This document shows positions 1,060 through 24,300 of a DNA stretch of 27,955 bases, one piece after another (the first letter of the stretch is position 1; the number at the start of each line of letters is the position of its first letter). Origin of the DNA: a virus (taxonomy: Duplodnaviria; Caudoviricetes); the IMG/VR virus record IMGVR_UViG_3300034096_000658, positions 1-27,955 of that record. One strand, 5' to 3'. A program made the translations under genes and the position numbers. The notes under the pieces were generated by a model. That model did no database searches and had not been told where the DNA came from. It saw only the letters and a list, made by a program, of their open reading frames with translations.

Positions 1060-1623
1060 TCAGTTATTCACATTATCTGTGATACCAGCAATTGCTACAG
1101 TATCGTAAACAAACACAACGTTAAAAGTATTTAACACATTTGGACGAGATGAATTGAATGAGATTTCATTAATCGTTCGGGGCCAAAGTCCATTTAAGTA
1201 AAATGTTTTCTGTACTGCCCCATTTAAATCTAGATGCTGAATAGTCCAGTTAACTTTATAGTTTGACCCATTAACATAATTTGTATTATTATTTACATGA
1301 TTATTAATATAATTGTGCCACCGCTGAAATGATACCCACAGATCTCCGCTACCCGTATCATCTAGAATAGAAGCAGACCATGTTGAATATAATTTTTCAC
1401 CAGGATAATATAGTTTTCGACCAAAATGGTCATATGCAATGGTACTAGTTTGCAATGTGGGAATTAAAGTAGATCTTACATGAAATTCTGATATTAAATT
1501 ATTAGTATTTGAACTGTTTACAGTATCTCCACCAGATGGAAATCCACCCAGAATCTTAAAACGATTTTGTCTTGTTCCACCACCTAAAAAATTATCTTTA
1601 AATTGATTTAATGAAGTAGGCAT
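1060..1623 (-). CDS. gp19: Tail tube protein paralog A (gp19 family, more diverged copy)
   Basis: GGTRQNRFKI, FGRKLYYPGEKLYSTWSASILDD, LWPRTINEISF, FNVVFVYD match the gp19 pattern; lies between the other gp19 copy and the portal; AAAGGA RBS. Confidence 0.85.
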   Translation of the reverse strand: MPTSLNQFKDNFLGGGTRQNRFKILGGFPSGGDTVNSSNTNNLISEFHVRSTLIPTLQTSTIAYDHFGRKLYYPGEKLYSTWSASILDDTGSGDLWVSFQRWHNYINNHVNNNTNYVNGSNYKVNWTIQHLDLNGAVQKTFYLNGLWPRTINEISFNSSRPNVLNTFNVVFVYDTVAIAGITDNVNN

Positions 1624-1642: not shown

Positions 1643-2185
1643 TTATATACCAGTTAAAATTTCTAAATGGTCAAACGTTAAAGTTACGTCAAAAGTTACA
1701 AACTCAGAAGATCCCATATCAAAATTTATACCACCAACTTCACTGGGCCAGCATCGAAATAATTTAATTTCACGATAGATTTGACCATTTGCTTGTAATT
1801 GTTGAATAAAAAAATTAGTTTGAAGATTTTTATATCCAAAATCATTATTAGTTAATTTATGTGTTTGATGTCCGTCTAAAAGTTCTTTCCATTGCTGAAA
1901 AGCTTTCCACAAAACTTTATCACCGTCATCATATACTTTAATTGGCCAGACAGAATATTGTCTATCACCAGCAAAGTATGCCATACGACCTCTATATGGA
2001 ACACCTATGACACCAACATCTGCTTTTGGTAAAGCTGCAGACGATATAGTATATGCTGATTTTGTTTGAGCAAAATTGGCATTATTAATACCAGTTGGAA
2101 ATGAAGGAATAACCTTAAATCTATTGGCACGAGTGCCACCTTTAAATGCTGCTTTAAATGTATTTAATGAATTATTGATTGCCAT
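1643..2185 (-). CDS. gp19: Tail tube protein paralog B (gp19 family, canonical motifs)
   Basis: GGTRANRFKV, VPYRGRMAYFAGDRQYSVWPIKVYDD, CWPSEVGGINFD, FDVTLTFDH; directly downstream of the sheath gene. Confidence 0.92.
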   Translation of the reverse strand: MAINNSLNTFKAAFKGGTRANRFKVIPSFPTGINNANFAQTKSAYTISSAALPKADVGVIGVPYRGRMAYFAGDRQYSVWPIKVYDDGDKVLWKAFQQWKELLDGHQTHKLTNNDFGYKNLQTNFFIQQLQANGQIYREIKLFRCWPSEVGGINFDMGSSEFVTFDVTLTFDHLEILTGI

Positions 2186-2186
2186 T

Positions 2187-3497
2187 TTACTGTGCGAGTG
2201 TTATATTGATGGTAAATGTAGTTGTTCCAATCAATGGAGTCACAGACACAAATATAGTTAATGATGCTGCATTATCAGTGTTGTTAGTAGAATTGCATAC
2301 AACTTGTGTTTGTGCTGTATCAATATTTGTTGCATATTGAAGAAGATAATTTTGTATTTCAGCTGTAACCAATAGTCTAGTAGTAGCATTATTAATTTGA
2401 TACAAATATTTAATACCAATATCTGTAATATCTCGTTTCATTGCAGATTTCATTTGAGCTGGACCTACACGCTCATCTACAATTGGAGCTGAAGTAGATG
2501 CAGTTGCTCCTACTAAATCTGATCCCAAGAAATTTCCAGAAGTAAAGTTTAGAAAATAATTTACTCTAGCACTTGTAAGTAAAGTTTTTAATGCACTATC
2601 AGACCAGTTAACAGTTCCAGTAACAGCACCATTTAATACAGTACCACGACCAGATCCTGCAATAGTTAAGTATAATTCACCACGAGAATTTGCTCGTGTA
2701 AAAAATCCAGCAATATCAGCTGATAAATTATTTGTATATGTAATTGTGCCACCATTTAATAATGAAGGTACTGGAAATGCTGTAACTGTTTTTTGTCCAT
2801 ATACTGAAAATACTCTATCTGAAACAGTTGCACCTTCTGTAAAGGCTGTAGAAGCAAAAGCAAATGTTGCTAATGTCTGTCCAGCACCATTGTTTATGGT
2901 AGGAAATATACCAATGGTATAAGGAGATTCTGTTTCAAGCCATTTTTGAATACCAGTAAATCCTGCACCAGTACCTGTGCACAATGCAAGATCTATATCA
3001 TCTGAGGTATCAGCTTTATATTGATTAAAACCAATAGTTGCACCAGCAATTATAAGATTACCACCATACGAAAGATAATCAAGAGCGTATAGAAAATCCA
3101 AACCAGCATTACCGGTACCACCAAAACCTATTGGATTTGTTCCAGTATTAGCAAAAAAGCCAAATGGATTAGTTGTACCTGCAGTTGAAACTTCATTAAT
3201 TAAACATCCAGTAACTCCAGACAGTTTATTTAAATCATTAATCAAACCACTTGGAGATGTGTAAAAGATATACTTATCTCCTGTAGTTCCTGTAGCGGGT
3301 GTTGATTTAACTGCTTTAGCATATAGGAGCCATCCAAACAATCCACCTGGATCATTTGTAGGAATTCTACTATTAAAATTTATTGTTGTATTATTATAAG
3401 TAATACCAGTTAAAAATGCTGCAGTCATTTGAGCCGCAGTAGATACAGTTTCGCTATTAAATTGATTCGTACTAGTAAAAGAACTGAGAGTTGCCAT
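2187..3497 (-). CDS. gp18: Tail sheath protein (gp18-like), short and diverged
   Basis: Position between gp17 and gp19; remnants of sheath motifs DYLSYGGNL, LSADIAGFFTR, IAGSGRG, NNATTR, VVCNSTNNT; 436 aa. Confidence 0.8.
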   Translation of the reverse strand: MATLSSFTSTNQFNSETVSTAAQMTAAFLTGITYNNTTINFNSRIPTNDPGGLFGWLLYAKAVKSTPATGTTGDKYIFYTSPSGLINDLNKLSGVTGCLINEVSTAGTTNPFGFFANTGTNPIGFGGTGNAGLDFLYALDYLSYGGNLIIAGATIGFNQYKADTSDDIDLALCTGTGAGFTGIQKWLETESPYTIGIFPTINNGAGQTLATFAFASTAFTEGATVSDRVFSVYGQKTVTAFPVPSLLNGGTITYTNNLSADIAGFFTRANSRGELYLTIAGSGRGTVLNGAVTGTVNWSDSALKTLLTSARVNYFLNFTSGNFLGSDLVGATASTSAPIVDERVGPAQMKSAMKRDITDIGIKYLYQINNATTRLLVTAEIQNYLLQYATNIDTAQTQVVCNSTNNTDNAASLTIFVSVTPLIGTTTFTINITLAQ

Positions 3498-5186: not shown

Positions 5187-5613
5187 TATTCACAATTTCA
5201 GCATCAATGATTTTATTGGTGCTTCTATCTTTATTTAAGATGTTCTGTAGATCAGTTGTAGAACCAAGAAATACAGAATTATTGGTTTGTTTAATTTCTG
5301 TTTTTACTGCTGTTGTATCTTTTACTTTTTTATGTACATCAATAACGTTATTATTCAGATCTGCAAGCGTTTTAAGTAAAATAGCAACTACTTCAAATGC
5401 TCTGGGACTATCTGATTCAGTAGCAACTTTCAAAGCACTTTCAAGAGCAATACTTCCATTATTCAATAAATCTTTAAAATTACCTTGAACTAATTCATAG
5501 TCTTTTTGAAAATTGTTATTATTAAAAGTTCCACCAGCTATATTGGATGGTTTAGTATCTGGTTGAACAGGCACATTAAAAAATTGAGATAAATTTTTAT
5601 TCATCGAATCCAT
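5170..5613 (-). CDS. gp16: Terminase small subunit
   Basis: KDYELVQGN, SDSPRAFEVVA, TNNSVFLGSTTDLQ motifs; overlaps the start of gp17. Confidence 0.92.
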   Translation of the reverse strand: MDSMNKNLSQFFNVPVQPDTKPSNIAGGTFNNNNFQKDYELVQGNFKDLLNNGSIALESALKVATESDSPRAFEVVAILLKTLADLNNNVIDVHKKVKDTTAVKTEIKQTNNSVFLGSTTDLQNILNKDRSTNKIIDAEIVNNEPKQ

Positions 5614-6265
5614 TTCGTCCAGCAGTTAAACCCCTCAAAGAAATACTGTCAATATCAGTAATCGTTTGTACTTTACCAAAAATATAACTTTTAGCCACAA
5701 AACTAAATGATGAAATATTAATACGCCTTCCAGACATATCTCCATCATATCGTTCACTAATACTATTTGATATCATTGATATAGGAATTTTTACATTATC
5801 CTGTGCTGAATTCAATGACATACTAATAATATGATCTGGATTAAAATATGGTATAATTTGTTCAACAATCTGTAATGTATCATCAATGTGTCTAGTATAA
5901 ATGAATAAACTAAAACCAACATTAACAGGTACTTGTTCTGTTATAATTGATGGATTGTCTATACAAGCATTTCTTGATAGTAGTGGTGTGTTTCTATTTC
6001 TACGACGAGATGCATCTGTAGCAACATTCGTCATAATATAACTCATACGTGGAAGTTGGTTTTCAATACGAATACCATCATTTATTGATGATGGTTCCAA
6101 CAATCTTCTAATGAATTTTTCTTGTGAAGCATAGGTAATTGGAACACGTATACTTAAATCAGTAGCACTATCTGGATTATCATGATTAACAAAAATATTA
6201 TTAAATAATGATCCAAAACCTACAACTAATTTTCTTAAATTTTTATTATAAAAATAGTCAAACAT
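5597..6265 (-). CDS. gp15: Tail terminator / sheath stabiliser
   Basis: YFYNKNLRKLVVGFGSLFNNI, VPITYASQEKF, LPRMSY, LQIVEQIIPYFNP. Confidence 0.95.
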   Translation of the reverse strand: MFDYFYNKNLRKLVVGFGSLFNNIFVNHDNPDSATDLSIRVPITYASQEKFIRRLLEPSSINDGIRIENQLPRMSYIMTNVATDASRRRNRNTPLLSRNACIDNPSIITEQVPVNVGFSLFIYTRHIDDTLQIVEQIIPYFNPDHIISMSLNSAQDNVKIPISMISNSISERYDGDMSGRRINISSFSFVAKSYIFGKVQTITDIDSISLRGLTAGRNGFDE

Positions 6266-7777: not shown

Positions 7778-7785
7778 TATTTATG
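7778..7785 (-). promoter_or_regulatory. T4-type late promoter variant (CATAAATA) 8 nt before gp13 ATG
   Basis: Minus strand CATAAATAtttttaatATG. Confidence 0.65.
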
Positions 7786-8228: not shown

Positions 8229-8852
8229 TTATGGGGTTGTATAAATATAACTCATTCCGGCTGGTAGCACACTTCGTTGTAAAAAAGCTTTATGTTCTTC
8301 CGATATATCTGCAACAATTTCGATAATATTAGAACCATAATTTGATACAGCAGTAGTGGTATAATCATATCCCAACAATGTTACCAAAACATATTTGATC
8401 GCTGCAGTTGTTCCTTTGATATCAAAATATTGAGAATCAACTTGAATAGAGAAGCGTCGAATATTTGGTAAGATTTCTACTAATCCTACAGAAGAAAAAT
8501 CTTCTCCAGGAAAATAAAATTCAGCTAAACCCTGTAGTAACTCTTCAGGCATTTCCATAGGAGATCGTAAAGTCTCCCATTCAATATATGCTCCGTAACC
8601 ATATTTAAGACTAAACAACCACCTTAAATAATTTTTTAAAATTGGAACAATTTTAACATTATTAGTATCAGCCTCATATTCTCGAATAATCCATTCTGGT
8701 AATAAAGATTCTAATGTAAGCTGATCACCGATAAATTTATCTTTACCTACATTTAATAACTCTGAGCCATATATTTTTTGTACATATGCTTGCATTAAAT
8801 TTACTTTAGCTGCTAAAGTTACAGGTAGTCTATTAAAAAATAAAGGAATCAT
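8229..8852 (-). CDS. Small baseplate wedge subunit (gp7-like core, P2 gpI-sized)
   Basis: Follows gp6; LLPEWI...ILKNYLRWL, YFDIKGTTAAIKYVL and terminal VLPAGM motifs resemble gp7/gpI-type wedge proteins. Confidence 0.65.
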   Translation of the reverse strand: MIPLFFNRLPVTLAAKVNLMQAYVQKIYGSELLNVGKDKFIGDQLTLESLLPEWIIREYEADTNNVKIVPILKNYLRWLFSLKYGYGAYIEWETLRSPMEMPEELLQGLAEFYFPGEDFSSVGLVEILPNIRRFSIQVDSQYFDIKGTTAAIKYVLVTLLGYDYTTTAVSNYGSNIIEIVADISEEHKAFLQRSVLPAGMSYIYTTP

Positions 8853-9922
8853 AATGCGTAGACTACTCCTATACCAGCAATAGTACGTGATTGTAGGTAG
8901 TCAATTAGAAGAGTTTGATTGCTTGAAGATAATCCAGTAACATATACATTAACGGTGCCTGGTGTATCACCATTTCGTACTGAAATCAAAGTAGAATCAT
9001 TTGTTCCAGTAATACTAGAACTTAAAATAGCTTTTTCAAAATCTTTCAATGTAACACATCTATCTTGACCATTTGCATTAAATAACACTTTTGCTCTTGC
9101 AGTGTCAACAGATATAGTATCATAACCGCCAGAAGCTGAACCAATAATATTTAATAAACCGGTTGGATCAATAATAGTACCACCATTTCCAGCTTTACCA
9201 TTTGATACAATAGCACGAACAATAACAGATTTTGATGTTGGAACAATTGCAGCATTAGCAAAATTATTAGTAACCAAATATCCATTTGAGCCATGTGTTA
9301 CAGTAAAGAAATTATTATTAATTGATGTAGTTGTATTTCCTTTACTTACTCTTGTCCATTTAATTTTTTCAGCTTTATTTAATGAATCTGGAATAACATA
9401 AAAAGAAATTGTATTAGGATCTATATTATATGGAAGTATAATGGATTGGCTTACATGATCGTAATTGGAAAATGTTGCAACAGATGATCCCGAATATAAA
9501 TAAGTTTCAACTGCAGCTGATGCTCCTGAAGTTTCATTATATAGATAGAATCTTAAATTTGCACCACTTGTAGATGTTGCTGCAAATCCTGTATAATCAT
9601 CCATTGCAGCTGTAGTTACAACTCTAGCAGATGCAGATTGTATCAAAGGAACTATAACTGAATGATTTGAGGCAATTGAAACTATAGATTCTAATAGCGT
9701 TGCTGTAGATAAAAATGATTCAGTAAATCCAAATTGAGCATATACCCCATTATATGCTGTGGCAGTTGCAAGAGTTCTTAATAATAAATTAGCTGTACTA
9801 GCTTCATCTCTAAAAGAAATATCAGTTAGACCGGGTTGAACTTCTAAAAAAGAAGTCAATGAATCCATAATATTTTCAAAGTCTAAAGAAGCAACATTTA
9901 AGGATTTTAAATTATATGTCAT
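8849..9922 (-). CDS. gp6: Baseplate wedge protein (gp6-like), short
   Basis: SLDFENIMDSLTSFL, ESFLSTATLLESIVSIA, SNGKAGNG, QDRCVTLKDF; follows gp25; 357 aa. Confidence 0.88.
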   Translation of the reverse strand: MTYNLKSLNVASLDFENIMDSLTSFLEVQPGLTDISFRDEASTANLLLRTLATATAYNGVYAQFGFTESFLSTATLLESIVSIASNHSVIVPLIQSASARVVTTAAMDDYTGFAATSTSGANLRFYLYNETSGASAAVETYLYSGSSVATFSNYDHVSQSIILPYNIDPNTISFYVIPDSLNKAEKIKWTRVSKGNTTTSINNNFFTVTHGSNGYLVTNNFANAAIVPTSKSVIVRAIVSNGKAGNGGTIIDPTGLLNIIGSASGGYDTISVDTARAKVLFNANGQDRCVTLKDFEKAILSSSITGTNDSTLISVRNGDTPGTVNVYVTGLSSSNQTLLIDYLQSRTIAGIGVVYAL

Positions 9923-10302
9923 GTTAGTGGTATTTCAATTCTACAAGAAGATTTGTTTTGTGAATTTAAACTCAATTCTGTTAAAAAACTAATATCAAAA
10001 ATTATTACAGTATCTGAATAGTAATTAATAGAAACTTTAACATCAAAGATTTTTTTAATTGATGATTTGATTGCTGCCTGTAGAATATTAACTATAAGCT
10101 GTCTATTGATACCAATATCATAGATATAATCACTAATATTTGCACCAAAAGAAGGATTCATCATATTTTCTCCTTTATTGGTACGTAAAATATTTTCAAT
10201 TTGTTGAACAATAGAATTTGTTCCATCAACATATGCGATATCTTTTGTTCCATTAATCGTGAACGCAGGTTCTAATAAAATTGAAAAGTCTTTAGTACGC
10301 AT
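9919..10302 (-). CDS. gp25: Baseplate wedge / sheath initiator
   Basis: SIVQQIENILRTNKGENMMNPSFGANI, the gp25/GPW signature. Confidence 0.92.
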   Translation of the reverse strand: MRTKDFSILLEPAFTINGTKDIAYVDGTNSIVQQIENILRTNKGENMMNPSFGANISDYIYDIGINRQLIVNILQAAIKSSIKKIFDVKVSINYYSDTVIIFDISFLTELSLNSQNKSSCRIEIPLT

Positions 10303-10319: not shown

Positions 10320-11177
10320 TTAGGACCAGTTCTCGTAAGTGTTAGGTGGATTGAATGGATTATTAAAAACACCTGGGTTATTTGGAATATTTAAGGTATC
10401 ATTCCATGGATTTTCTGGAGGAGTTTCACCACCACCCTCACCACCTGGAGTTGCTGCAACAGATGTTGGTGGTAAAATACTTGTAAGAGCAAGTTGTGTT
10501 TCGTGTGTACCCGTATTGGTAAACATGTGTTTAATACCCAAAACCCAATATATTCCATTAATAGGAGATGATCCGGCTGAATACGGATAGCCACTAGTAT
10601 TGTTTGCTACAACTTCAACAAAATCACCAGATCTTAAACTCATATCTCCAGAAATATTAATAGTTACTTTTCTTCCAAAGGTTATAGAATCTAAAAACTC
10701 TTTACGTTTAACGGGAGCATCTTTAGGAGTATTCCAAAAAGTAGCAACATTTAAACGTAATTTTAAATACGCTTCAAATTTTTCACCAATCTCTGGACAA
10801 CTGCAGTTAAATGGTGCTTCTGGAAGTCCCCACAAACAACCAAAGAAATCTTCACCAAGTTCTGTATTAGATTTAATCTTCATACATTCATTAGATGCCG
10901 TACCTAAATAAATATCAAATGGTGGTGTAAGACCAGCAGAACCACACATTCCAGGAAAAGACCATAAAGATGCTGATCCTGTTATACCTATTGCTTCTGC
11001 AATAGTAGCAATTTTGGGAAAACGTGTCAAACAATCATCTAATGATGTTGGAGATGATGTTATGCCTTGAGTGATTTGTGCATTTGCACAGACATATTCA
11101 CCACGTGCACCAAAATTACCAATAGGTGTTGATAACACATTTGAACCAAGAGTTACAATTTTTCCTTTTTGTGGCAT
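10320..11177 (-). CDS. Probable C-terminal part of baseplate hub (gp27/GpD-like) with Cys-rich N-terminus and Pro/Gly/Asn tail
   Basis: VTINISGDMSLRSGDFVEV...GIYWVLGIKHMF...HETQLAL resembles the last beta-barrel of gp27/GpD/VgrG hubs; start overlaps the upstream stop (TAATG). Confidence 0.6.
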   Translation of the reverse strand: MPQKGKIVTLGSNVLSTPIGNFGARGEYVCANAQITQGITSSPTSLDDCLTRFPKIATIAEAIGITGSASLWSFPGMCGSAGLTPPFDIYLGTASNECMKIKSNTELGEDFFGCLWGLPEAPFNCSCPEIGEKFEAYLKLRLNVATFWNTPKDAPVKRKEFLDSITFGRKVTINISGDMSLRSGDFVEVVANNTSGYPYSAGSSPINGIYWVLGIKHMFTNTGTHETQLALTSILPPTSVAATPGGEGGGETPPENPWNDTLNIPNNPGVFNNPFNPPNTYENWS

Positions 11178-13132
11178 TAGCAGTTCCCATCTAAAACGTT
11201 TTCGGCACTAAAGTAATACAATGCTTTACCTCTTAATTCTGGTGGTACTGTTATATTACCATCCATTGCCATTTTTTCTGCACTTGTACGATACATTTTT
11301 ACAATATGTGCTATAGTTGCACCAGTTGGAGTGACAGTGCTCGTATTACATCCAATAGGTCTATATTTAAATCCACCAACTTCAGAAACCCAACCGGGTG
11401 GTAGATACTTTGGATCACCTAAACCAGCAGTTCTCTCATTTAAATTTATCGCCCAAGTATCTTGGGTTGCACCAGCCATATTAGTTTCATCAGTTTCCCA
11501 TAATTCCATTAATGACCAATATGTACTACCAGCAGCATTAATAAACTTTAAACCTTCCCATTTATATCTCCACTTTAATTCGGGACCCATTGATTGTGTT
11601 GTTGAAGTTGCTGCTGCATAATCTGCAACCAATTTATCTGGTTCATATCTTATTAAATTTGCAAAGAAGGTTTCGTCATCACCAAGACAACACAATACAT
11701 ATAAAACAAAGTTTTCACGTTCAATTTTTCTACGTGTTTCCAAATTATCAGGAGAATACGATGAACCTTTATATAATTCTGTAAGATTTTTTTGAATTTG
11801 ATTATAATAGAAAGTACTAGTATCTGGTTCAGCTTCAGGATCTGCTGTTAGTGATCTAGGATAATCAGGGTGAACTGCTGTCATATCAAACATATTTTTC
11901 CACATTTCAGTATTATCTGCACGTGAAAAATAACCACTGTGACCCATGTAATCATTAGTTGAATATGTCTTTGCTAACCCAAATTCACCCGACCCATGTG
12001 TAGCTGGAGCGTTATCATTTGTAGTGTTGGTATCAGAAACCCATCCATAATCTTTTTCATAAAATACTTCATCTGCACCAGATGTTATTCCACCAATTAA
12101 ACCATTAGATGCAATGGTTTCAATATTATATTTTTCACCATCATCTTGAAAATGGAATGTTAGAGCTTTGGTTGTATATTTTACTGAATCAGTTATTTCA
12201 GGTGGAATAATATCTAAAAACTTAGGAGTTTTTCTAACATAAACATAATTTTTAGAAACAAATTGATTTGTAGGATCAGTATTTAAAACATAAATCTTTT
12301 TATATGTTTCTCCATTTGTAGATAGCTGAGTAGGACTATCACCATTATAAACACTATATCTATAGTTATTGTTATTATATTTGGTAATACTAACAGGATC
12401 TTTACTCAAATCAGATGGAAAATGTTTAAAATTAATGTAATCACCAAATTCCGTCCAAAACATAAATCTGGGTTCAAATGATGTTTTATCTACAGCCAAT
12501 GAAGAAAGGTAATTTAAATATTGAAATGCATTATCTGTAACAGATAAATTTAATTTATTACTTCCAACATTTAATTGTTTTAATGAAAAGAAATTGTCTG
12601 CAGGAGTTAGTGTTCCAATATGAGTATCTTGAGTTGAACTAAGTCTATTTTTAATATTATTACTTGCAGAAGTAAATAATTCTTCAATTGTATAAACTCT
12701 ATCTTCAAGAGTGTCTACACTAATAAGTAAATCTGCTGCTGATGTTTTTTGTGATAATTTATAAAAACTATTAGTAAAATTAATTGAAACAAAACTATCT
12801 TCATTATCAGAAGCCGCATTGGTTACATTTGCAGTACTGGTTATTGATAATAAACGTGGTTTAGCACCATCATTAAATGAAACCAAAATGCTATCAATTT
12901 GATTTTTTTGAATAAAATTTATTATATCTCCTGTATCACGTACAACAAGAGCACCTACTGGATAAATCTCAAATACACTTTCTTCCATTTCCAATCGTGT
13001 AAATTTACACTCAGCATTCTCTCTTGTATTTTGGCTCAATATATCAAATGAATAGTTTGGAAACTTTGAACTTTTAAAAAGTAAAGATCTTATTGTAGAA
13101 TCAAAGGCGTTTGAATTTGTATTTATTGCCAT
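11177..13132 (-). CDS. Probable N-terminal part of baseplate hub (gp27-like) plus an extra C-terminal domain
   Basis: Follows gp53; LEMEESVFEIYPVGALVVRDTGDII and AFQYLNYLSSLA...FMFWTEFGDYINFK resemble N-terminal and central hub motifs of T4-like tail proteins. Confidence 0.55.
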   Translation of the reverse strand: MAINTNSNAFDSTIRSLLFKSSKFPNYSFDILSQNTRENAECKFTRLEMEESVFEIYPVGALVVRDTGDIINFIQKNQIDSILVSFNDGAKPRLLSITSTANVTNAASDNEDSFVSINFTNSFYKLSQKTSAADLLISVDTLEDRVYTIEELFTSASNNIKNRLSSTQDTHIGTLTPADNFFSLKQLNVGSNKLNLSVTDNAFQYLNYLSSLAVDKTSFEPRFMFWTEFGDYINFKHFPSDLSKDPVSITKYNNNNYRYSVYNGDSPTQLSTNGETYKKIYVLNTDPTNQFVSKNYVYVRKTPKFLDIIPPEITDSVKYTTKALTFHFQDDGEKYNIETIASNGLIGGITSGADEVFYEKDYGWVSDTNTTNDNAPATHGSGEFGLAKTYSTNDYMGHSGYFSRADNTEMWKNMFDMTAVHPDYPRSLTADPEAEPDTSTFYYNQIQKNLTELYKGSSYSPDNLETRRKIERENFVLYVLCCLGDDETFFANLIRYEPDKLVADYAAATSTTQSMGPELKWRYKWEGLKFINAAGSTYWSLMELWETDETNMAGATQDTWAINLNERTAGLGDPKYLPPGWVSEVGGFKYRPIGCNTSTVTPTGATIAHIVKMYRTSAEKMAMDGNITVPPELRGKALYYFSAENVLDGNC

Positions 13133-13133
13133 A

Positions 13134-13958
13134 TCATGTATATTTAACAGTAATTAAATTACGTGTAACTTTAGATAATTCGCTTGGAACAAATGTATTT
13201 ATTTTTTTGTTGACCACAACTACAGCTTCTTCTTTAGTATATTGTGCTGTTGGTGGTTGTCCTGCAATTGGATTATAACTTGGAGGAATATCCGCTATTG
13301 CCATGTTTCTAAAAGAAATAACATTTGAAACAGTAGAATACTGAAGTACTTCATCAGTTTGTAAATACTTTTGTGTATCTATACTAACAATTTCATCTAC
13401 AGTAGACATGATGTAACCAGTTGGTGATTTAAAATCAATATATTGATAATTTGGATTCAAATCAATAAATGAAGTCACACCGTTTACTTGTGGTTTAATT
13501 GTTATTTTTTTAGTATACGAATCCTGGTCTTCAACAACAAATATTTGACCATCTAAATCAAAATTACCAACATAGCTATAGTCATATGGACTCCCACCTG
13601 TTGCTGCGTATGGTAAAACAATACTTCCAGGAAGCATATAAAATCCAGTTAAACCAATCTGAAGTCCTAATGTGGTCACATACTTTTCTTTATTCTTTTT
13701 ATTAAATTCTGTTGAATTATCCTCTAATAGAGTAAATGGGTTAATCCAACTATTAGCTAAAAGCAGAAGCCAAAAAGAATTTGGATCTTCATATAACTTT
13801 GATGCTGCTTCCACTAAAGTGGTTTTTGAATCAAATTCAAATTCTTTTTTAGAAACTAAATCAAAATTAAATTTATAATAACTAAAAAAATCACTAATAG
13901 AATATGTACCATTTGTAGTTTCAAAATTACGTTTTGGTAATTGATCAAAATATTTCAT
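13134..13958 (-). CDS. gp53: Baseplate wedge protein with LysM-like domain
   Basis: MKYFDQLP, AASKLYEDPNSFWLLLLANSWINPF; adjacent to gp48. Confidence 0.88.
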   Translation of the reverse strand: MKYFDQLPKRNFETTNGTYSISDFFSYYKFNFDLVSKKEFEFDSKTTLVEAASKLYEDPNSFWLLLLANSWINPFTLLEDNSTEFNKKNKEKYVTTLGLQIGLTGFYMLPGSIVLPYAATGGSPYDYSYVGNFDLDGQIFVVEDQDSYTKKITIKPQVNGVTSFIDLNPNYQYIDFKSPTGYIMSTVDEIVSIDTQKYLQTDEVLQYSTVSNVISFRNMAIADIPPSYNPIAGQPPTAQYTKEEAVVVVNKKINTFVPSELSKVTRNLITVKYT

Positions 13959-13960
13959 AA

Positions 13961-14785
13961 TTATCCACCGTATCCAAAATAATAATCTGAAATTTCAGAT
14001 TTAGATAACGTTGCATTGAGTTCCGGAACATATGTTCCTGTTTCAAATTCGGTAAAGTTTAATCCAAGCAAAACAGCAGAAGATCTTAGATCTGGTAAAA
14101 AACGAACAATTGGATCACCATAATCAGCATGTTTGACAACTAGTCCACTAAGTACGCATGGAAGAGGTTCACCAAACCAATCGGCAGTTGCGTTTTGGTT
14201 GTAGTCACCATTACCAGACTGTCCATTGGAATTACGTAATACACTAACATTCCATAATCTCTGTGGATAACTGCGTTCTGGTAGTCCAGTTGCCACTACA
14301 GGGTATGAACCTTTACGAAAGGTTCCAATAATATCTGCAACAGTCAAAGATTCTTCAGCACTTTTTGGTGTAAAAAGATATTCAAAATAATAACTTTTTC
14401 TTGCTTCAGAAATCATAGTAAGTTCAGTAATATTACTGAATCTTCTATATGTATCTGTTGCATACTGTCTTTCTGCAAAGAAACTGATTGGTTGCATAAC
14501 TCGAGAATATAATGTTCCAAAGTTCTCTAAACCACCACTATTTGCTGCTCCTGCCATAGAAATAACAGGTCCTACAGGATTCTGACCTTCACCAAATTGG
14601 TGGATGACACTATATCCTGGTTCTTTTGGCATAGGAAGCACTATACGAGCAGCAGAACGGGATATGATGCTCTCACGTGTTCTTTCAAAGTTCTTCAATG
14701 AGTAGTTTGCTACATCAAAACACAACTGTAGAGGAACTTCATTTTTGGAAGCATTTGAAAGAGGATAAATATAGGTTGAAGGCAT
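13961..14785 (-). CDS. gp48: Baseplate tail-tube cap
   Basis: IVLPMP, RKSYYFEYLFTPKSAEES, CVLSGLVV, LGLNFTEFE. Confidence 0.85.
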   Translation of the reverse strand: MPSTYIYPLSNASKNEVPLQLCFDVANYSLKNFERTRESIISRSAARIVLPMPKEPGYSVIHQFGEGQNPVGPVISMAGAANSGGLENFGTLYSRVMQPISFFAERQYATDTYRRFSNITELTMISEARKSYYFEYLFTPKSAEESLTVADIIGTFRKGSYPVVATGLPERSYPQRLWNVSVLRNSNGQSGNGDYNQNATADWFGEPLPCVLSGLVVKHADYGDPIVRFLPDLRSSAVLLGLNFTEFETGTYVPELNATLSKSEISDYYFGYGG

Positions 14786-14793
14786 TCTTATAA

Positions 14794-14815
14794 TATTTAT
14801 AAAATATCATAAATA
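14794..14815. promoter_or_regulatory. Back-to-back late promoters for gp48 (minus, TATAAATA 14794-14801) and gp4 (plus, CATAAATA 14808-14815)
   Basis: Both motifs lie in the 36-nt divergent gap, 8 and 6 nt from the respective ATGs. Confidence 0.78.
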
Positions 14816-14821
14816 TTTTAA

Positions 14822-15256
14822 ATGGCATACAGAACACAATTTTTTCCGCAAAATAAACAAAAATACGTTGGTGATTCTCAAAAAATCATTTGTAGATCAT
14901 TATGGGAACGAACTGTCTGTAAATTTTGTGATGATCACCCCAGCATTATAAAGTGGTCATCTGAAGAAATTGCCATTCCATACTTTCACCCAATCGACAA
15001 TAGAGTCAGAAATTACTATCCAGATTTTTTAATTCAGTTTCAACAAAAAGAAAAGTTATGTTTATGGATGGTCGAAGTTAAACCAAAAAAACAAACAATC
15101 TTAAAAGAAAATGCTTCTAAAAATGAAAAGTATACTTGGGTAGTTAATAATGCAAAATGGGAAGCAGCCAAAAATTATTGCACTAAGAATAATATTGAAT
15201 TTAAACTTCTAACAGAAAAAGAGTTATATAACAAATGTCATCTTCACAAAATTTAA
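14822..15256 (+). CDS. gp4: Head completion nuclease (TnsA-like PD-(D/E)xK fold)
   Basis: KYVGD...RSLWER...WSSEEIAIPY...YYPDF...VEVKPKKQT...NNAKWEAA...LTEKEL. Confidence 0.95.
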   Translation: MAYRTQFFPQNKQKYVGDSQKIICRSLWERTVCKFCDDHPSIIKWSSEEIAIPYFHPIDNRVRNYYPDFLIQFQQKEKLCLWMVEVKPKKQTILKENASKNEKYTWVVNNAKWEAAKNYCTKNNIEFKLLTEKELYNKCHLHKI

Positions 15257-15798
15257 ATAATATTGAAACCATAAAAACCTATTTGGATACCCATCAAGGT
15301 CTTCAAAGAGCTAACAGGTATTCTGTTGTAATAAAAAATATAGCATCAAATGATGATGCTTTGACATGCTATCCGGAAGCAGTATCTTTTGGTGCAAGAG
15401 CTACAAATTACATATATGACAATTTACAAGGATATGGTTATGGTCGGGCTGTTCCCAACTCAAGTAAGTTTGTTGGTGGAATAGTAATGACATTTATGGT
15501 TACTGGAGATTTAAGTATTTTAACATACTTTAATGACTGGTTTGATTCTATGTATGCAAAGAATGCTAATAGTACGTTTACAGTGCCTTACTATGATCAG
15601 TCTGTTTTAGGTTCTGAACTATATTTGACATACTTAGATCTAAACGGCAATCCTTCTCCAGGACGTTCTGTGTGGACATTTAAAGAAATTTATCCTGTCG
15701 AGTGTATGCCATTAGAAATGTCATCAAAACCCGACTCTCCACTTTTATATCAAGTTGTACTAAATTATCGAAACATTGAAAGATCTACAGGAGATTAA
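15235..15798 (+). CDS. Tube-fold baseplate protein (gp54-like tube initiator)
   Basis: GLQRANRYSV, YFNDWFD, VPYYD, FKEIYPV: gp19-family fold, positioned between gp4 and gp26. Confidence 0.75.
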   Translation: MSSSQNLNNIETIKTYLDTHQGLQRANRYSVVIKNIASNDDALTCYPEAVSFGARATNYIYDNLQGYGYGRAVPNSSKFVGGIVMTFMVTGDLSILTYFNDWFDSMYAKNANSTFTVPYYDQSVLGSELYLTYLDLNGNPSPGRSVWTFKEIYPVECMPLEMSSKPDSPLLYQVVLNYRNIERSTGD

Positions 15799-15799: not shown

Positions 15800-16456
15800 A
15801 TGGATATTTTAAATTTATTTAAAGATGCTCAACCAAAGTTTGAAACAACTTTACCGTTTAGTAAGAAACAAGTTTTATTTACTGCATTTAAAGTCAAAGA
15901 CGCAAAAAAAATTGCGTTAGTCTTACAAGAAAATAATAAGAAATTATCTTTAATTGCTCTTTATGAGTGTATTAAAGAAAATTCTAATTTAAAAAATATT
16001 GATGATTTATGTTTGGCAGATGCTGAATATTTATTTTTACAAATTAGATCTAAAAGTGTTGATGAACTTTTAAATGTCCTAGTTAATGGTAGTAAATATC
16101 AGATTCAAATTAATAACATTATTACAAAAAATAATTTACAGATCAAAACAATTTTAATAGGATCTTCAATTGTTTTAAATTTAGAATCTCCAGTACTATC
16201 AGATCTGTTAAAACAAGACAATTTTGATGACCAAACTTATGCTAAAGCATGTATCAAAAGTATAAACATATCTGGACAAGTATTTTACCTAGATAAATTT
16301 TTAAACAAAGAATGTCAAGATATTATTGACAACATGCCAATTTCAACAATTAAGGATCTTAACAAATTTGTAGAAACCGAACCCAGACTTTATTTTGCTA
16401 TAAAGGATGAAATAAATGAAAGTGAGGTAAACGGTTTCCTAAGTTTTTTTATCTAG
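15800..16456 (+). CDS. gp26: Baseplate hub assembly chaperone
   Basis: PKFETTLP, FTAFKVKDAK, DAEYLFLQIRSKSVDE, terminal GFLSFF; the ATG at 15800 with AGGAGA RBS is preferred over the track's 15776 start. Confidence 0.9.
   Translation: MDILNLFKDAQPKFETTLPFSKKQVLFTAFKVKDAKKIALVLQENNKKLSLIALYECIKENSNLKNIDDLCLADAEYLFLQIRSKSVDELLNVLVNGSKYQIQINNIITKNNLQIKTILIGSSIVLNLESPVLSDLLKQDNFDDQTYAKACIKSINISGQVFYLDKFLNKECQDIIDNMPISTIKDLNKFVETEPRLYFAIKDEINESEVNGFLSFFI
16444..16450 (+). other. Candidate -1 ribosomal frameshift heptamer T TTT TTT
   Basis: AGT TTT TTT ATC TAG at the end of gp26 gives a correctly phased X XXY YYZ heptamer; the -1 frame is the gp51 ORF. Confidence 0.7.
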
Positions 16457-16653
16457 CATCTAGTTACTTTGATATAATTGATTATTATAAAACCAATTTT
16501 TCATTATTTAAAGAACTAAAATGGTCTATATCTGATATTGAAAATATGTATTTTTGGGAGAGAGAAGTTTATATAAGTGTTTTAGTTAGTTACAATCAAG
16601 ATTTACAACAACAACAACAGCATAACTCAGCAGCAGGACAATACATTGGATAA
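16450..16653 (+). CDS. gp51: gp51-like hub assembly catalyst domain, no canonical start codon of its own
   Basis: Not in the ORF track. Manual translation YLASSYFDIIDYYKTNFSLFKELKWSISDIENMYFWEREVYISVL...QYIG* matches the gp51 motif YYKTNF..L......S..EIENM..WERE.Y; frame bounded upstream by TGA at 16423-16425. Confidence 0.88.
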   Translation, partial: YLASSYFDIIDYYKTNFSLFKELKWSISDIENMYFWEREVYISVLVSYNQDLQQQQQHNSAAGQYIG

Positions 16654-17146
16654 CACAAGTAAAATTGATATTCAGGCAGAAAAGTTAGCCTTTAATGATT
16701 CTATTGTACAATCAGGTACATATAACGATATGGCAAAACCATCAGAACCTGTTACAAAAATGGAATTGCCACAAACTGAATTGATAGGAGAAAAGGCAAA
16801 TATCCCATCGATTGTAATGGCACCTGTTACCCCACCAAGTAACTATGAGACTGATGATAGAATTAGTATTAATCCAGTTGTACCGGCTTCTCGTGAATCT
16901 AAATTATTAAATATGCAAACCAGTTCACCAGATAATGTAACTAGTAAAAAAACAACAAATATAGAAAAACAGATATCACAGAGCATACTACCTTCAATTC
17001 AAAAAATTGCACAACAGGTAAATGATATGGGTACGTCTCAAGGAAAAAAAACCAGTATGACTGAAGAACGACCTACACTTGCCCCCGTAAATTTAATTTT
17101 TATGGAAAGAAGTGCTAAGGCATCTCAATCACCTGCATGGTCATAA
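16646..17146 (+). CDS. Hypothetical protein in the tape-measure position (TTG start)
   Basis: 166 aa ORF, AGGA 7 nt upstream of TTG, ends at a terminator; Pro/Ser/Thr-rich with one amphipathic-looking helix. Confidence 0.65.
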   Translation: MDNTSKIDIQAEKLAFNDSIVQSGTYNDMAKPSEPVTKMELPQTELIGEKANIPSIVMAPVTPPSNYETDDRISINPVVPASRESKLLNMQTSSPDNVTSKKTTNIEKQISQSILPSIQKIAQQVNDMGTSQGKKTSMTEERPTLAPVNLIFMERSAKASQSPAWS

Positions 17147-17173
17147 AAAAAGCCCCCTTGCGGGGGCTTTTTT
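17146..17173. terminator. Bidirectional rho-independent terminator
   Basis: AAAAAAGCCCCC-TTGC-GGGGGCTTTTTT between convergent genes; GCAA (GNRA) loop on the minus strand. Confidence 0.95.
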
Positions 17174-18413: not shown

Positions 18414-19355
18414 ATGGGAAGCACAACAGACACAATTCCAATTCAAACATCTGGTATTACCGCAAATATTGCTACTGATTATATCGGTACAGGTGGAATT
18501 ACTGGACATTACCAATTAATCAAACTTGCATATGGCGTTGCTGATTCTGCAACCATAGTTAGTAGCTCGAATCCCTTCCCCGTAACCATTGCGGCTGGTA
18601 TGACTGCTACAATTTCTGGATTTACCGGAACCATTCAGGTTCAGGGTGTTGGTGGTGGTACTCCGGTACCAGTATCTGGAACTGTTGTAGTTACCGGTAT
18701 CACTACTTCACAACTGTATGTTACTACTACAAGTGGTTCTAGAGTTGAAATCACTGGTGGTATTCCGCTTACTAAAATTCGAGATGCAGTCTCAGTATTT
18801 GGTCCCAATGGTATAACTTATGTTTATACTCACCTAGTTGACGCTGCAGGAAACTCATTAAGTTATACTAACGGTGCCTTGAATGTTAATATTCAAGGAG
18901 TTACTATCAGTACAACCATTCAATCTACTGTTGGTGTATTTGGAATATCTGGAGCCACTGCTGTAGGTGTAAATGTTGGTAACACTGTTGGTATTAACGA
19001 CACTGCTATTCTTTCTGGTATCACTGCTATGTATGGTCAGATTGTTGGACTACGTAGTGATCTGGGTGGCTTTGCCGTTATTCGTCCTACCGGTGGCACA
19101 GCATATAGAATTTCTAGTACTTCGACATCAACAGTTTTATCAGGCTTTACTTGTAAGTCTGGAGTCAATCTTAAAGCCGCATCAAGTAATACAGACATAA
19201 TCTATATTGCAGATAGTTCCAGTGCAGGATCAACAACTAATACAGGATATGAATTAGATCCGGGTGAGTCGCTCTTTATTGATATTATCAATATGAATTT
19301 GATTGCACATAGAGCAAAATCTTCATCCCAAGTTCTAAGTTATATCGCCACATAA
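18414..19355 (+). CDS. Gly/Thr-rich probable virion structural protein
   Basis: 313 aa, beta-rich composition, C-terminal GVNLKA...NTDIIYI...GYELDPGESLFI module; late-promoter-like motif upstream. Confidence 0.7.
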   Translation: MGSTTDTIPIQTSGITANIATDYIGTGGITGHYQLIKLAYGVADSATIVSSSNPFPVTIAAGMTATISGFTGTIQVQGVGGGTPVPVSGTVVVTGITTSQLYVTTTSGSRVEITGGIPLTKIRDAVSVFGPNGITYVYTHLVDAAGNSLSYTNGALNVNIQGVTISTTIQSTVGVFGISGATAVGVNVGNTVGINDTAILSGITAMYGQIVGLRSDLGGFAVIRPTGGTAYRISSTSTSTVLSGFTCKSGVNLKAASSNTDIIYIADSSSAGSTTNTGYELDPGESLFIDIINMNLIAHRAKSSSQVLSYIAT

Positions 19356-19356
19356 A

Positions 19357-20670
19357 ATGTTAAAAGACGCTTTAACAACAGTTAAGACATCATCTTCCTA
19401 TACAGCACAATTTATAGGAAATACTGCAGATCCATGCTTTACTAAAGGTAAATTAAATGGATCTGCAAATGTTTTTGTAACTGGTAACTCTTTCTTCTTT
19501 GATTATTCTGAATTAAAGAATGGAACAGATTTAAAATTTTTAAATAAGTTTTTTAATGGTCGTACTGGTGGAGATACGTTTAATTTTTCAAGTGGTACAT
19601 ACTATGAACCTACTACCGGTTCTCAAATTACTTGGAATGGTACATTTACGCTTCAAGGTAAAACAGGAACATATAACCAATATATTTTATGTTCTGGGGT
19701 TACTGGTACTGCAGCACTAACTGCTGGATATTATGTAAATAAGAACTTTACAAGTCCCATACAGTTTACAGCAACTACTGGGAATACAGCAAATATTCTT
19801 ATATCAAAGACTCCAAGAAATACACCATTAAATTTAGATTATTTGGGTATATACGGATCTGACTATGGTTTAGAAGAGTATGTTGAAGTATTAGAAAGTG
19901 TATCTAACACTGGTCGTTTAACACTTAAAAACTTTGTTAAATTGAATGACGAAACAGAAGTTGTTTACGTAACAAATTCTCTAACAAATGAGAATTTATT
20001 CTTTAAGAAATCTACAATTAATATATTGAATCGTGGTATTCCTTCACTAGAAGTATTATCATCAACTCAGATTCAAAATGGTGTTACAAAGATAGCCGAT
20101 GCTACAACAGAAAATACTATTTTACTTTTAGAAAATCAAAATACATATCAGTATGATCTAAAACAAAAAAATAATCCAACACAACACTGCTACTATTATC
20201 CAAATTCTACATTAAAATCAATAACATCAAATAGTGAAAATATTTCAGAATATAAAAATTTATCATTCTTTTATTCTACAATTTATATTTTAACTACACA
20301 AACTGTTTATAATTTGGTTTATAATTCCGAAGGATTTAATATTTCGGAATTTGTAGGATTTAATAATTCTGAAGATAGAATTTATATTAATGGAAATGAA
20401 ACTGATATTTTATCAATAACAAAAGCATCAGTAATTTTACCTATGAAATTTGATTTATCAGATGCCTCAAATAGAGGTTCTGTTATAGAACTATTTACAG
20501 ATTTTCAATGCACACAAACGCTTATCTCTGATTATTATTTAACAGGATCACCAGGATATGAAGGTGCTGCTTTTATATATTTTGCTAACAGACCATCATC
20601 TGTATCAAATATTTATATGAGATGTATTAAAAATACAACAAATATTATTCAAATTTCAATATCAGCCTGA
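19357..20670 (+). CDS. Hypothetical protein, possibly virion-associated
   Basis: 437 aa ORF 1 nt after the previous stop; Thr/Asn/Ser-rich; no family recognised. Confidence 0.7.
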   Translation: MLKDALTTVKTSSSYTAQFIGNTADPCFTKGKLNGSANVFVTGNSFFFDYSELKNGTDLKFLNKFFNGRTGGDTFNFSSGTYYEPTTGSQITWNGTFTLQGKTGTYNQYILCSGVTGTAALTAGYYVNKNFTSPIQFTATTGNTANILISKTPRNTPLNLDYLGIYGSDYGLEEYVEVLESVSNTGRLTLKNFVKLNDETEVVYVTNSLTNENLFFKKSTINILNRGIPSLEVLSSTQIQNGVTKIADATTENTILLLENQNTYQYDLKQKNNPTQHCYYYPNSTLKSITSNSENISEYKNLSFFYSTIYILTTQTVYNLVYNSEGFNISEFVGFNNSEDRIYINGNETDILSITKASVILPMKFDLSDASNRGSVIELFTDFQCTQTLISDYYLTGSPGYEGAAFIYFANRPSSVSNIYMRCIKNTTNIIQISISA

Positions 20671-20942: not shown

Positions 20943-21347
20943 TTATACTTTCTTTTTATTTGCACATCCACATGGTTTTTTAATAGTATTAGAAGATTTA
21001 CTACTATCATCACTTAAATCTAAAATGTTATTGTTTGATACATTGATCAGTGGTTGAAATTTTAAAACAATATATGGTATAGAGATATATTGGTTAAATT
21101 TTTTTCTTCTGGCTTCACATCCACAGTTACCTTTAGTTATTTTTATAATAAGATATTTGATGCCTGTGAACTTTGTCACAAAATCAATAACATCTCCCAA
21201 TCCAATTGTTTTTATTAAAAGAATAATTGTTTTTTTGTATATTGTATTATTGCTTTGATTTGATTTCCAGTTAGCAGGAACATTATATGTTCCACCGTTT
21301 CCATCAGATGTTGAACTTGTATTAAATGTGAATCTACCTGTAAACAT
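20943..21347 (-). CDS. Small basic CGC-motif hypothetical protein
   Basis: GLGDVIDFVTKFTGIK...GNCGCEARRKKFN and terminal KKPCGCANKKK; GAGGAG RBS upstream. Confidence 0.7.
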   Translation of the reverse strand: MFTGRFTFNTSSTSDGNGGTYNVPANWKSNQSNNTIYKKTIILLIKTIGLGDVIDFVTKFTGIKYLIIKITKGNCGCEARRKKFNQYISIPYIVLKFQPLINVSNNNILDLSDDSSKSSNTIKKPCGCANKKKV

Positions 21348-21372: not shown

Positions 21373-24300
21373 TTATGGCTCTGTTACAATAGCCTGACAA
21401 GTAATATCTCCAGATTGTACTACGGGAGTTTGTTGATTAGGATTAGGACCAGTTTGTGGAGAAACTATAACTTGATATGAACTAAGAGGTGGAGGATTTG
21501 GATTAATAAATCCTGAAAAACTTACTCTATCAAACGTTACACCATTAAACGAATTTGGTCTAAAGGCATTTATTAAATGCCATTTTTTAAGATCTCCACC
21601 CAATGGAGGAGCATAGTTATAAGTATTTCCAACATCAAAAACTAATAATTTTATATTTAATTGATCGTCTGTACACCCTGAGCTGTAACACGGTAATGTT
21701 GCACCTAACCAAGGATTATCTGTGACACCAACATAACTGCTAGCAAGTTTATAAGGCGAACCTACTGGTACATTACGTTGATATGATACTATCCCATCAT
21801 CTGCAGTACCATCTGTTTGCCAACCTAATGGTGTATCTTGACCATCTGGTGATACATACCAAATCCAACCACCAGGACCTAATATTGATGCTCCTGGATC
21901 TGCCAAAATACATCCAACTGTTCCATTACCATCACATGGTTTACCTGTTTGACTTTGGTTTCTTAATGCAAAGAAATAGGAATCTTGTAACTTATCTAAT
22001 CTAGCTTCACCCAAATAAACATAAGGGTACTGTAAAACACTATCATATGGAAATATTTTTAAAGCATTTGATGGTTTATTATATTCGTGTCGATATGGAT
22101 CTTTGGTAAAAAATGTTTTATAAGTTGATGAAGCTTCATCATATCCAAAGTATGTTAATTTTTGTACATAATTAAAATATGAAATATTTGTAATATGTGT
22201 TTTACAACATCCATTTTTTCTTGAAAATTGTTTATACGATTGTATAAAATAATCTTTATTAGAATTAAATCCTACTTTTCCTACTGATGTAGCACATATG
22301 TCAGAGAAAGAAGGTCCATCTGGACAACAATTTCTTATACAAGTACCACCCTCACAATTTGATTCACATACTAAAGCACATCCACTATCTTGTGGAGCCC
22401 AACCTCTTGCAGCTTCTAATAGCGGCATTCCAGTAGACTGCCAACAAATATCTGCTTTTTCTGGACATCCAGCACTAATGCTACTATTACCATCACTCAA
22501 TCCACTTGCTTGATTACCAAAGTCCAAATATTGTGTACATTGTGTAATATCATCTACTTCAACACTATGATTTGGTACATACGATTGGTATCTTCGAATA
22601 AAAGAATTCATCCACCAATATTGAGGATTTCCACTATATTGCCAAGATATATCTTCTGTTCCTTCAAAATTATATCCTAAAATACTGCAAGGATCGGGTT
22701 GAGCAACTGGATCTCCAGAATTAGTTATTCTTTGGTCACAAAATCCACCATAAATCCATTTTGAAAAATCCCAATTTCCAGGAACTGCTCTAAAAAAAGC
22801 TTGGCGTTGAAAGTATTTTGGAATATTACTGGTACCCGCACCGAATTGGGCTGTTACAGCTTCAGGATCAACAAAATCTCGATAATTCCAAGTAGGAGAT
22901 ACAACATCACCGTATTTTAAAGCAATAGCATGCCCATATCCAAATGATATATCACTGTAACCAAATTCACTTATATCATCAGGATCTGGAGTAGACAAAC
23001 CATAATAGTTTTCATTTTTTCTTGTCCATATAAACGTTTTATTTACACGAAAGAATTCTGTTCCAAATAGTTGAGAATCATTTCTAGTTTTATATAAAAC
23101 AGCAAATCCATTTGATCCTGCTGTAATTTTTATTATATCTCCATCAAAAGTTTGAGACCAAGATCCAGTTGCACCGGGTAAATCTGTTGTTTTGTATGTA
23201 GGAAGCATTTCAGTTCTTCCCCATACATATACAGTAGAATTAGAAGCAACCATACTATAGTCTGGTCCACCATCAACAAATATTAATTTATCTGTAGGAC
23301 TATGTTGAGAAAGTAAATCAAAAGATTCTGCAAGTAAAGATTCATCCTGAGAACTACTAGGGATATCTGTTTTATAGGTTACAGTCCACTGATCTGCTAA
23401 ATTTTTTACAGAATCTGGAAGAAAGGTTGGTATTGTAGTTCCAATTTTTTCACCTAAAGGATTAATATAATAATATGCACCCCAAACTCTTACTTGATTA
23501 TCAGATTGTATTGCAATTGCATGATAATTACCAGATCCAATTTGGGTATAATATGGTCTACTATAACCTGCAGTAAGACCATTAATAGTATTACCAGAAT
23601 CGTCAATAGGAACACGTTGTATTAATCCTGTACGCGCATCCTTTAAATCATCAGGTGTAGATGAACTATATCTACAAGTTTCATTTATATTTCCATATGT
23701 TATGCCATTGTATCTACCATAAAATAGTCCGCTACTATTTATTTGTAATGTAACATTATATTCGCCTTCAGATACGTAGCCTGGTTTAGCGTCATATCTA
23801 TTAATAATATTATTTGTTCCAGGAAGATTTTCATTATTTTGACCATACTGAAATATATTATCAGTATTATCACCGGTTACTGCTAATTCACCCATAGAAG
23901 ATATTGCAACGGTATGTTTACTTCCATTAGCAACATCAGACCAAACCATTTCTCTATTGTCAGCATAATCACCATATCCACCTGGATTTGAAAAACTAGA
24001 ACGAACAAACGTTCCGTAATCGCATGCTTTATTACCCCAAGAACGTAATCTATATTGAGGGAGTTTTGCATCATAATTATAAACTGGATAATTTTCTCCA
24101 GGTATTCTTGGAATAACACCATCAGCTAGATCACAGAAAGAATCTTGACTAGGTGATGATGTACAAGATGTTGATGTTTGATTAAAATCAAAAAACTCAG
24201 GATATTCAACTAATGCAACTTCAAAGGTACTACTTTTACCACCAAGTTTTACTAAAATACCTAAAGTAGGATCTGCACCAGCAGCTTGATTATCTTGATC

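Follow-up and report, generated by a model that had tools for sequence, protein, structure and literature searches.

The DNA analysed here (the window) is the whole of IMG/VR record IMGVR_UViG_3300034096_000658, a 27,955-base fragment of a T4-like phage genome. Directly behind its frameshifted tail chaperone genes gp26 and gp51, in the slot that normally holds the tape measure, lies a gene of only 166 amino acids (aa). We favour, with a probability of about two in three, the reading that this gene is a pared-down tape measure and that it fixes a stubby tail of ~5-9 tube rings, or ~20-40 nm, on a T4-type head; its role as the ruler is inferred from position and anatomy. No relative has a long gene in this slot, no long member of the family was found, and near-complete relatives revealed neither a better candidate nor a spike. 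The core inference, which was raised in an earlier note on this DNA, therefore survives.

A short gene in the tape-measure slot

The plus strand carries gp4, gp54-like, gp26-like and gp51-like frames and then the 166-aa open reading frame (ORF), followed by a hairpin and a convergent gp32:

14822..15256, plus strand: gp4 head completion protein (phrog_218, E 9e-50)
15235..15798, plus strand: gp54-like tube-fold initiator, 187 aa (phrog_45, E 2e-9)
15800..16456, plus strand: gp26-like tail/hub assembly chaperone, short form, 218 aa from the ATG at 15800 (PF12322, E 1e-21; phrog_150, E 4e-24)
16426..16653, plus strand: gp51-like frame, likely reached by a -1 frameshift on the T7 run near 16443-16449 (phrog_634, E 5e-16)
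16646..17146, plus strand: putative miniature tape measure, 166 aa (from position, conservation and anatomy)
17146..17173, both strands: bidirectional intrinsic terminator that separates the short gene from gp32 (12-bp hairpin, -19.2 kcal/mol, z -4.8)

The gp51 frame has no start codon of its own and lies at -1 relative to gp26, behind the T7 run at the end of gp26. The short ORF starts at a TTG with AGGA 7 nucleotides upstream, and it overlaps the gp51 stop. Twenty database proteins match it, of which 17 have the same length of 166 aa. As the arrangement is also seen in 151 of 203 loci, this is a real gene and not a chance ORF. Codon comparisons with two close relatives, in which synonymous and non-synonymous counts are about equal (11/12 and 29/30), indicate modest constraint and are not strong evidence. 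No second tape-measure-like ORF occurs within the window. The earlier note's description of the locus, with a short gene after gp51, a strong terminator and no long tape-measure ORF in the window, is thus confirmed.

The slot is short throughout the clade

Scans of viral and metagenome collections with gp48 and gp26 yielded 203 usable loci, many of them the same contig, after one unrelated locus (L005) had been excluded. Both gp26 and gp32 are spanned by 151 of these; the other 52 have no gp26 or no gp32 within the available DNA. The 151 loci represent 90 distinct spacers, whose gp26 proteins are 30-100% identical. In all 90, the space between gp26 and gp32 measures 638-865 bases and holds a single gene of 139-214 aa (median 149), directly after the frameshifted chaperone pair. 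The length comparison proposed in the earlier note thus found a short gene after gp51 in every relative. The T run is likewise present in 90 of 90 distinct relatives, and an open -1 frame of at least 55 aa in 89, and this kept frameshift suggests that the chaperone's client protein is still needed. A profile built from 37 members and searched against 1.84 billion representative proteins recovered 111 clusters at 50% identity, the longest member being 232 aa; no long form is therefore on record there.

The nearest cultured kin are Kyanoviridae-type phages (C48C1, Melnitz, S-SM2, P-SSM2 and P-SSM4), with a terminase up to 53% identical, and these served as controls. C48C1 has a near-identical gene order (gp25 to hub-gp53-gp48; gp4 to gp54-gp26-gp51-slot; gp32-gp33). 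By contrast, all five controls carry a slot protein of 492-1079 aa: the slot holds 492 aa in C48C1, 766 and 845 aa in S-SM2, 529 and 516 aa in P-SSM2, 1064 and 1079 aa in P-SSM4, and 109 and 742 aa in Melnitz. In the examined region, C48C1, S-SM2 and P-SSM2 also have an annotated gp5.

Anatomy of the short protein

The 166-aa protein consists of an N-terminal motif (~6-16), a variable middle rich in proline, serine and threonine, an amphipathic helix (~100-127), and a C-terminal motif (~140-165). The same layout of conserved ends and a variable middle is found across the family, where the middle spans 48-123 aa, is rich in Pro, Ser, Thr and Glu (9% Pro), and the C-terminal motif ends in Pro-x-Trp. 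The amphipathic helix of ~28 residues is significant in 29 of 37 members. Lengths between the two anchors are bimodal, at ~125-160 and ~180-205, in the 73 of 110 proteins that have both anchors.

These features can be set against T4 gp29, which comprises a coiled coil (1-120), a proline-rich region, a transmembrane (TM) segment (207-246), a helical bundle (273-518) and a C-terminal loop (571-590), according to the accessible part of bioRxiv 10.64898/2026.03.06.709160. Its last 20 residues are bound to the gp27 hub, and its basic N-terminal tip is needed for DNA binding, as stated in the part of PMC12929629 available to us. The long, mainly helical body of a tape measure is absent from the short family, whose members have 139-232 aa and one ~28-aa amphipathic helix. 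No TM-like stretch occurs in any of the 73 anchored members, where the maximum 19-residue hydropathy stays below 1.0 (0.63 in the window protein), whereas 8 of 10 control slot proteins have a TM-like segment and attain 1.6 on this measure. The first 25 residues average 1.4 Lys/Arg against 4.9 Asp/Glu, compared with 6 and 3 in gp29, and basic residues outnumber acidic ones in only 1 of 37 members. Both gp29 hallmarks, a basic DNA-binding tip at the N-terminus and a TM segment with a pore-forming bundle, are therefore lacking.

By analogy, the short protein looks like the plan of gp29 minus its pore-forming part (TM segment and bundle) and minus its basic tip. Because length, TM segment and basic tip all differ, we keep it out of the gp29-type family, while it likely works like the ruler half of such a protein. 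Annotated tape measures have medians of ~650 aa and up by repeat class, and since the accessible part of PMC13585406, the source of these values, gives no minimum, we do not call this the shortest known tape measure.

Search for a long ruler or a spike elsewhere in the genome

Genome-wide checks were made on five long relatives, G001-G005 (83-136 kb, all read fully), whose gp26 is 47-70% identical to that of the window. G001 spans 135.8 kb, and by synteny with G003 and G004 its ends lie ~4 kb apart, which would make it ~97% complete; the missing ~4-kb stretch contains no ORF of at least 230 aa in G003 or G004. PHROG scans covered most G001 ORFs unmatched in the window, with obvious replication and sugar-modifying genes left out. 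They identified fibre genes, head genes and, following gp23, a gp3-like gene, and found no tape measure, gp5 or PAAR. The only TM-bearing ORF of at least 300 aa common to G001-G005 is a guaC-type dehydrogenase. The search for a tape-measure candidate beyond the window, which the earlier note had advised, accordingly returned no conserved, membrane-bearing long candidate in these relatives.

No central gp5/VgrG spike with a PAAR tip was found in G001-G005, in agreement with the spike's absence as first claimed. A gp5 OB profile was blank in all five (best E 2.4), while it recovered a C48C1 control that had been left out of the profile (E 2e-18), which makes the gp5 negative a strong one; in the PHROG comparison the control gave E 1e-43. 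PF05488 (PAAR) was also blank in the relatives and matched the controls. Searches with PF06714 gave no match, the controls being likewise blank, and PF10145, a profile without demonstrated detection of T4-type rulers, was blank as well. A hidden long ruler elsewhere in the genome is unlikely.

Tail length

In T4, 590 residues correspond to a 925-A sheath and 23 rings (PMC3004832, accessible part). This scale of ~0.158 nm per residue gives 26 nm, or 6-7 rings, for 166 aa, and values of 22-37 nm for the family as a whole. With the middle fully stretched, ~42 nm would be possible for the window protein and 65 nm for the longest member. The figure of 25 nm or less given in the earlier note is therefore an estimate on the T4 scale and not a ceiling, as the Pro-rich, non-helical middle may stretch. 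If the short gene is the ruler, the tail would be far shorter than the 93 nm of T4 on either estimate. The suggestion that the length of the slot gene tracks that of the sheath did not hold up (rho -0.22, P 0.5, 12 pairs), and the tube duplication with which it was also to be compared is invariant across relatives.

Tube, sheath, hub and baseplate genes

The tail parts around the short gene are those of a myophage, with a sheath that has its core domains, gp25, gp6, gp53, tube and terminator. Portal, terminase, neck, gp23/gp21/gp22, gp32, gp33 and gp55, the T4 core genes, are present in the window and G001 taken together. The minus-strand genes of the tail are:

1060..1623, minus strand: tail tube paralogue b (phrog_45, E 1e-23)
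1643..2185, minus strand: tail tube paralogue a (PF06841; phrog_45, E 1e-33)
2187..3497, minus strand: sheath, 436 aa, with the two core domains of T4 gp18 (hidden Markov model (HMM) and structure matches)
5597..6265, minus strand: gp15 tail terminator (PF16724, E 5e-50)
8229..8852, minus strand: conserved 207-aa gene in the gp7 position (no family match; 203-251 aa in relatives)
8849..9922, minus strand: short gp6, 357 aa (phrog_219, E 7e-21)
9919..10302, minus strand: gp25 (PF04965)
10320..11177, minus strand: hub C-terminal piece, 285 aa, with a Cys-rich N-terminus and a second barrel (phrog_350; hhalign probability 93.8, E 2e-7 to control hubs)
11177..13132, minus strand: hub N-terminal piece, 651 aa, with the gp27 fold at ~1-416 and an unmatched C-terminal domain at ~440-651
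13134..13958, minus strand: gp53 wedge subunit (phrog_232, E 8e-6)
13961..14785, minus strand: gp48 tube cap (phrog_230, E 6e-10)

At 14794..14815 lie divergent sites, TATAAATA on the minus and CATAAATA on the plus strand, which we take to be T4-late-promoter-like on an assumed consensus.

Both gp19 tube paralogues are present wherever the region is covered (15 distinct sequences each), and across 11 relatives each they fall into two separate groups (support 96/92), so the duplication is old and has been kept, as the earlier note's duplicated tube would have it. The gp54-like protein of the window groups with C48C1 gp54, on long branches. The same note had called the sheath degenerate, which we reject: both core domains are present and the length stays within 428-441 aa across 15 distinct sequences. 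The HMM match covers residues 463-641 of T4 gp18 (E 5e-12), and the N-terminal segment leaves a weak trace. In a model with a confidence (pLDDT) of only 56, the C-domain matches the phi812 sheath (Z 9.5, root-mean-square deviation (rmsd) 2.5, 85 aligned) and the N-domain T4 gp18M (Z 7.4, rmsd 3.3, 117 aligned). In T4, domain I of the sheath takes no part in contacts between subunits, and the core is formed by the inner domains (PMC3004832). The sheath of this clade is minus its outer domains, minimal and not decayed; it may still shorten by a few nanometres on contraction, or it may serve as a rigid collar.

The hub is indeed split, with a gp27 fold in one gene and barrel matches in another. 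The best structural match of the N-terminal piece (model pLDDT 64) is a chain of the KP1 baseplate-cup entry 9f4a (Z 11.2, rmsd 4.0, 199 aligned), with other hub entries next. The two pieces are never fused, and in 63 of 63 distinct loci the spacing leaves no place for a gene between them or ahead of gp25; the 285-aa piece occupies the slot where C48C1 has gp5. The claim of a minimal wedge is supported in part, by gp6, which has 356-366 aa in the clade against 660 in T4; the neighbouring 207-aa gene has no family match. Residues 440-651 of the hub end in a conserved F-x-A-E-N-x-x-D-G-x-C motif and are a candidate spike substitute. This domain had no structural match in a whole-protein search, and its shorter homologues (8 matches) carry no Pfam domains. 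It could replace the spike.

Weighing the readings

Several observations weigh against a miniature ruler. The protein has no family match in PHROGs or Pfam, none to T4 gp29 or gp28 by hhalign, no homology to the control slot proteins, no match in the ESM Atlas, and only non-significant coiled-coil matches among PDB sequences (best E 0.04). Its middle is Pro-rich rather than helical, and no ring periodicity is apparent in its lengths (best P 0.015 of 17 periods). Position alone can mislead, as the Melnitz slot opens with a 109-aa membrane protein and has its long gene second; unlike in Melnitz, no long gene follows the short one in this clade. The window's genome is seen only over its 28 kb, CheckV puts the completeness of G001 at only 75%, and G001-G003 share conserved large unannotated ORFs of 791/786/795 aa and 514/585/617 aa. 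PHROGs also left the long slot proteins of C48C1 and Melnitz unlabelled as tape measures; its blank for tape measures is therefore weak, and a divergent long ruler elsewhere could escape detection. Extracellular contractile injection systems (eCIS; PVC/Afp) have two tube paralogues yet long tails, so that two tube paralogues alone imply no short tail.

A stubby tail might also arise unmeasured, by stacking one ring per gene (gp48, gp54, gp19a, gp19b and gp3; ~20 nm), with the short protein left from a tape measure as a slack tether or plug. The two kept gp19 groups and the gp3-like gene after gp23 in G001 suit such a stack, and a slack tether would fit lengths of 139-232 aa that follow neither a ring period nor the sheath. 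Against it speak the conserved ends and helix of the short protein, the kept chaperone frameshift, and the long tails of eCIS that also have two tube paralogues, and we regard this explanation as doubtful. Taken together, the miniature ruler and the fixed stack make a stubby tail highly probable. It is unlikely that the tail is of normal length, with the real tape measure among the ~790-aa or 514-617-aa ORFs and the short gene as an accessory. Their conservation in G001-G003, the blindness of PHROGs to divergent T4-like tape measures and the mostly unseen genome of the window all leave room for it. These ORFs, however, lie far from the tail module, have no TM-like segment (maximum hydropathy 1.39 and 0.83) where 8 of 10 controls do, and gave no phmmer match to nine control proteins. 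The 791-aa ORF fits a head protein better, having an N-terminal L-x-E site of gp21 type (motif from the accessible part of PMC9026906) and a basic C-terminal tail that has matches in small Vibrio phages. We consider it very improbable that there is no ruler at all, with tube and sheath polymerisation limiting itself at any tail length and the short gene having another assembly role. Type VI secretion does build tube and sheath without a tape measure, and no homology ties the short protein to tape measures, but the tape-measure chaperone pair and its frameshift stand directly upstream in 90 of 90 distinct relatives, and both gp15 and a gp3-like terminator were identified.

The earlier note is thus supported in part: its proposal of a stubby tail with the short gene as its ruler survives these tests, while the sheath's degeneracy and the 25-nm bound are corrected.

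Proposed mechanism

If the short protein is a miniature ruler, the gp26/gp26-51 chaperone pair would hold its chain as is the case for T4 gp29, and the conserved C-terminal ~25 residues would dock in the hub as the last 20 of gp29 do. The amphipathic helix might bundle with its copies, while the Pro-rich linker would run up the lumen with gp48, gp54 and the two gp19 paralogues stacking round it, and the N-terminal motif could be capped by gp3/gp15. Because it has no membrane segment, no helical-bundle domain and an acidic tip, the short protein would only measure and plug.

With no spike or pore domain, DNA entry would have to rely on other proteins, and the most plausible candidates are ejected proteins packaged in the head or the extra C-terminal domain of the hub. 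Relatives have 2-12 ORFs per long contig with capsid-targeting-like N-termini and an L-x-E cleavage site, found with a pattern of our own. Because such ORFs are many, ejected head proteins are our leading guess; the concept of the capsid-targeting signal follows the accessible part of PMC9026906. In G001, positions 6193-44185 and 128195-133759 hold many ORFs of 100-930 aa (with one of 3079 aa nearby) that have similar short N-terminal motifs and unrelated bodies, and these are candidate head-packaged ejected proteins.

More tentatively, at somewhat below even odds, this widespread, uncultured lineage of T4-like phages may have turned a contractile tail into a podovirus-like stub whose five or six rings might each be encoded by a separate gene, with a two-domain sheath, a spikeless split hub and the ruler as a pore-less tether, entry being by head-packaged ejected proteins.

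Comparison with known systems and significance

The clade shares with T4 a common parts list of neck, terminator, tube, sheath core, gp48/gp54, gp25/gp53/gp6, hub fold and gp26/gp51. It differs in the slot protein (166 against 590 aa), which lacks the TM and bundle domains and has an acidic where T4 has a basic N-terminus, in the sheath (436 against 659 aa) and in gp6 (357 against 660 aa). It also has two gp19 genes and a hub in two genes, and no gp5/gp5.4 was found. Its two-domain sheath is of similar size to that of PVC/Afp, chains of 351-383 aa from PVC and Afp being among the fold matches. PVC/Afp eCIS and the tails of P2/Mu type and of R-pyocins are built with a spike and long tape measures, whereas neither was found here, and the head is T4-type. 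Short-tailed phages (T7-like, crAss-like) deliver DNA with ejected head proteins. If our favoured reading holds, this clade would resemble them in a short fixed tail and reliance on head-packaged proteins, and would differ in its contractile-tail parts with sheath and baseplate; ejection here is only proposed. Among 50,697 phages, the clade's gp48 has no matching record and its sheath matches only over the C-terminal 40%. No description of a short-tailed T4-like clade or of the short-gene family was found in the literature at the level of titles and abstract starts.

T4-like genes are routinely read as a myovirus with a 100-nm contractile tail, a rule that this clade probably breaks. With over a hundred 50%-identity clusters of the short gene, the morphotype assignment of metagenomic phages would change. 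The two jobs of T4 gp29, measuring the tail and forming an inner-membrane pore, would be separated, the short protein being capable of the first at most, so that the smallest possible ruler and the replacements for spike and pore become directly testable; its natural 140-aa and 210-aa versions offer a built-in test of the ruler rule. The podovirus-like stub outlined above, if real, would add a third architecture, lying between myoviruses and podoviruses, and would be a natural intermediate in the loss of the long tail.

Host hints and other features

The hub had no match in genome contigs. In one locus (L259), a gp32 88% identical lies on a 1.8-kb contig binned as Terrimicrobiaceae (Verrucomicrobiota); this may be mis-binning and is too weak to name a host. 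The window carries an 1844-aa Cys/Gly/Pro-rich ORF with RCC1-like repeats (21373-26907), possibly a variable receptor-binding module. At or near its place relatives have divergent or unrelated Cys-rich ORFs of 850-2278 aa. Several of these begin with a Cys-triplet motif, as does the 80-aa ORF at 26914-27156. Two small Cys-rich genes lie at 7781-8227 and 20943-21347; the 148-aa one of the two, between the wedge genes and gp13, is conserved in the clade (52-70% identity, no family match). At 18414-20670, two plus-strand Gly/Thr-rich genes of 313 and 437 aa, without a family and likely structural, stand beside gp33 in all long relatives.

In G002, ARAGORN called a permuted transfer-messenger RNA beside several tRNAs (L141:5525-5923), and the gp13-gp20 block has moved away from the baseplate block (region 27838-38804). 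In this genome gp14 is followed by a second gene, 897 aa long and partly similar to gp14, and another locus carries a long insert at the matching place (L010:10224-12569).
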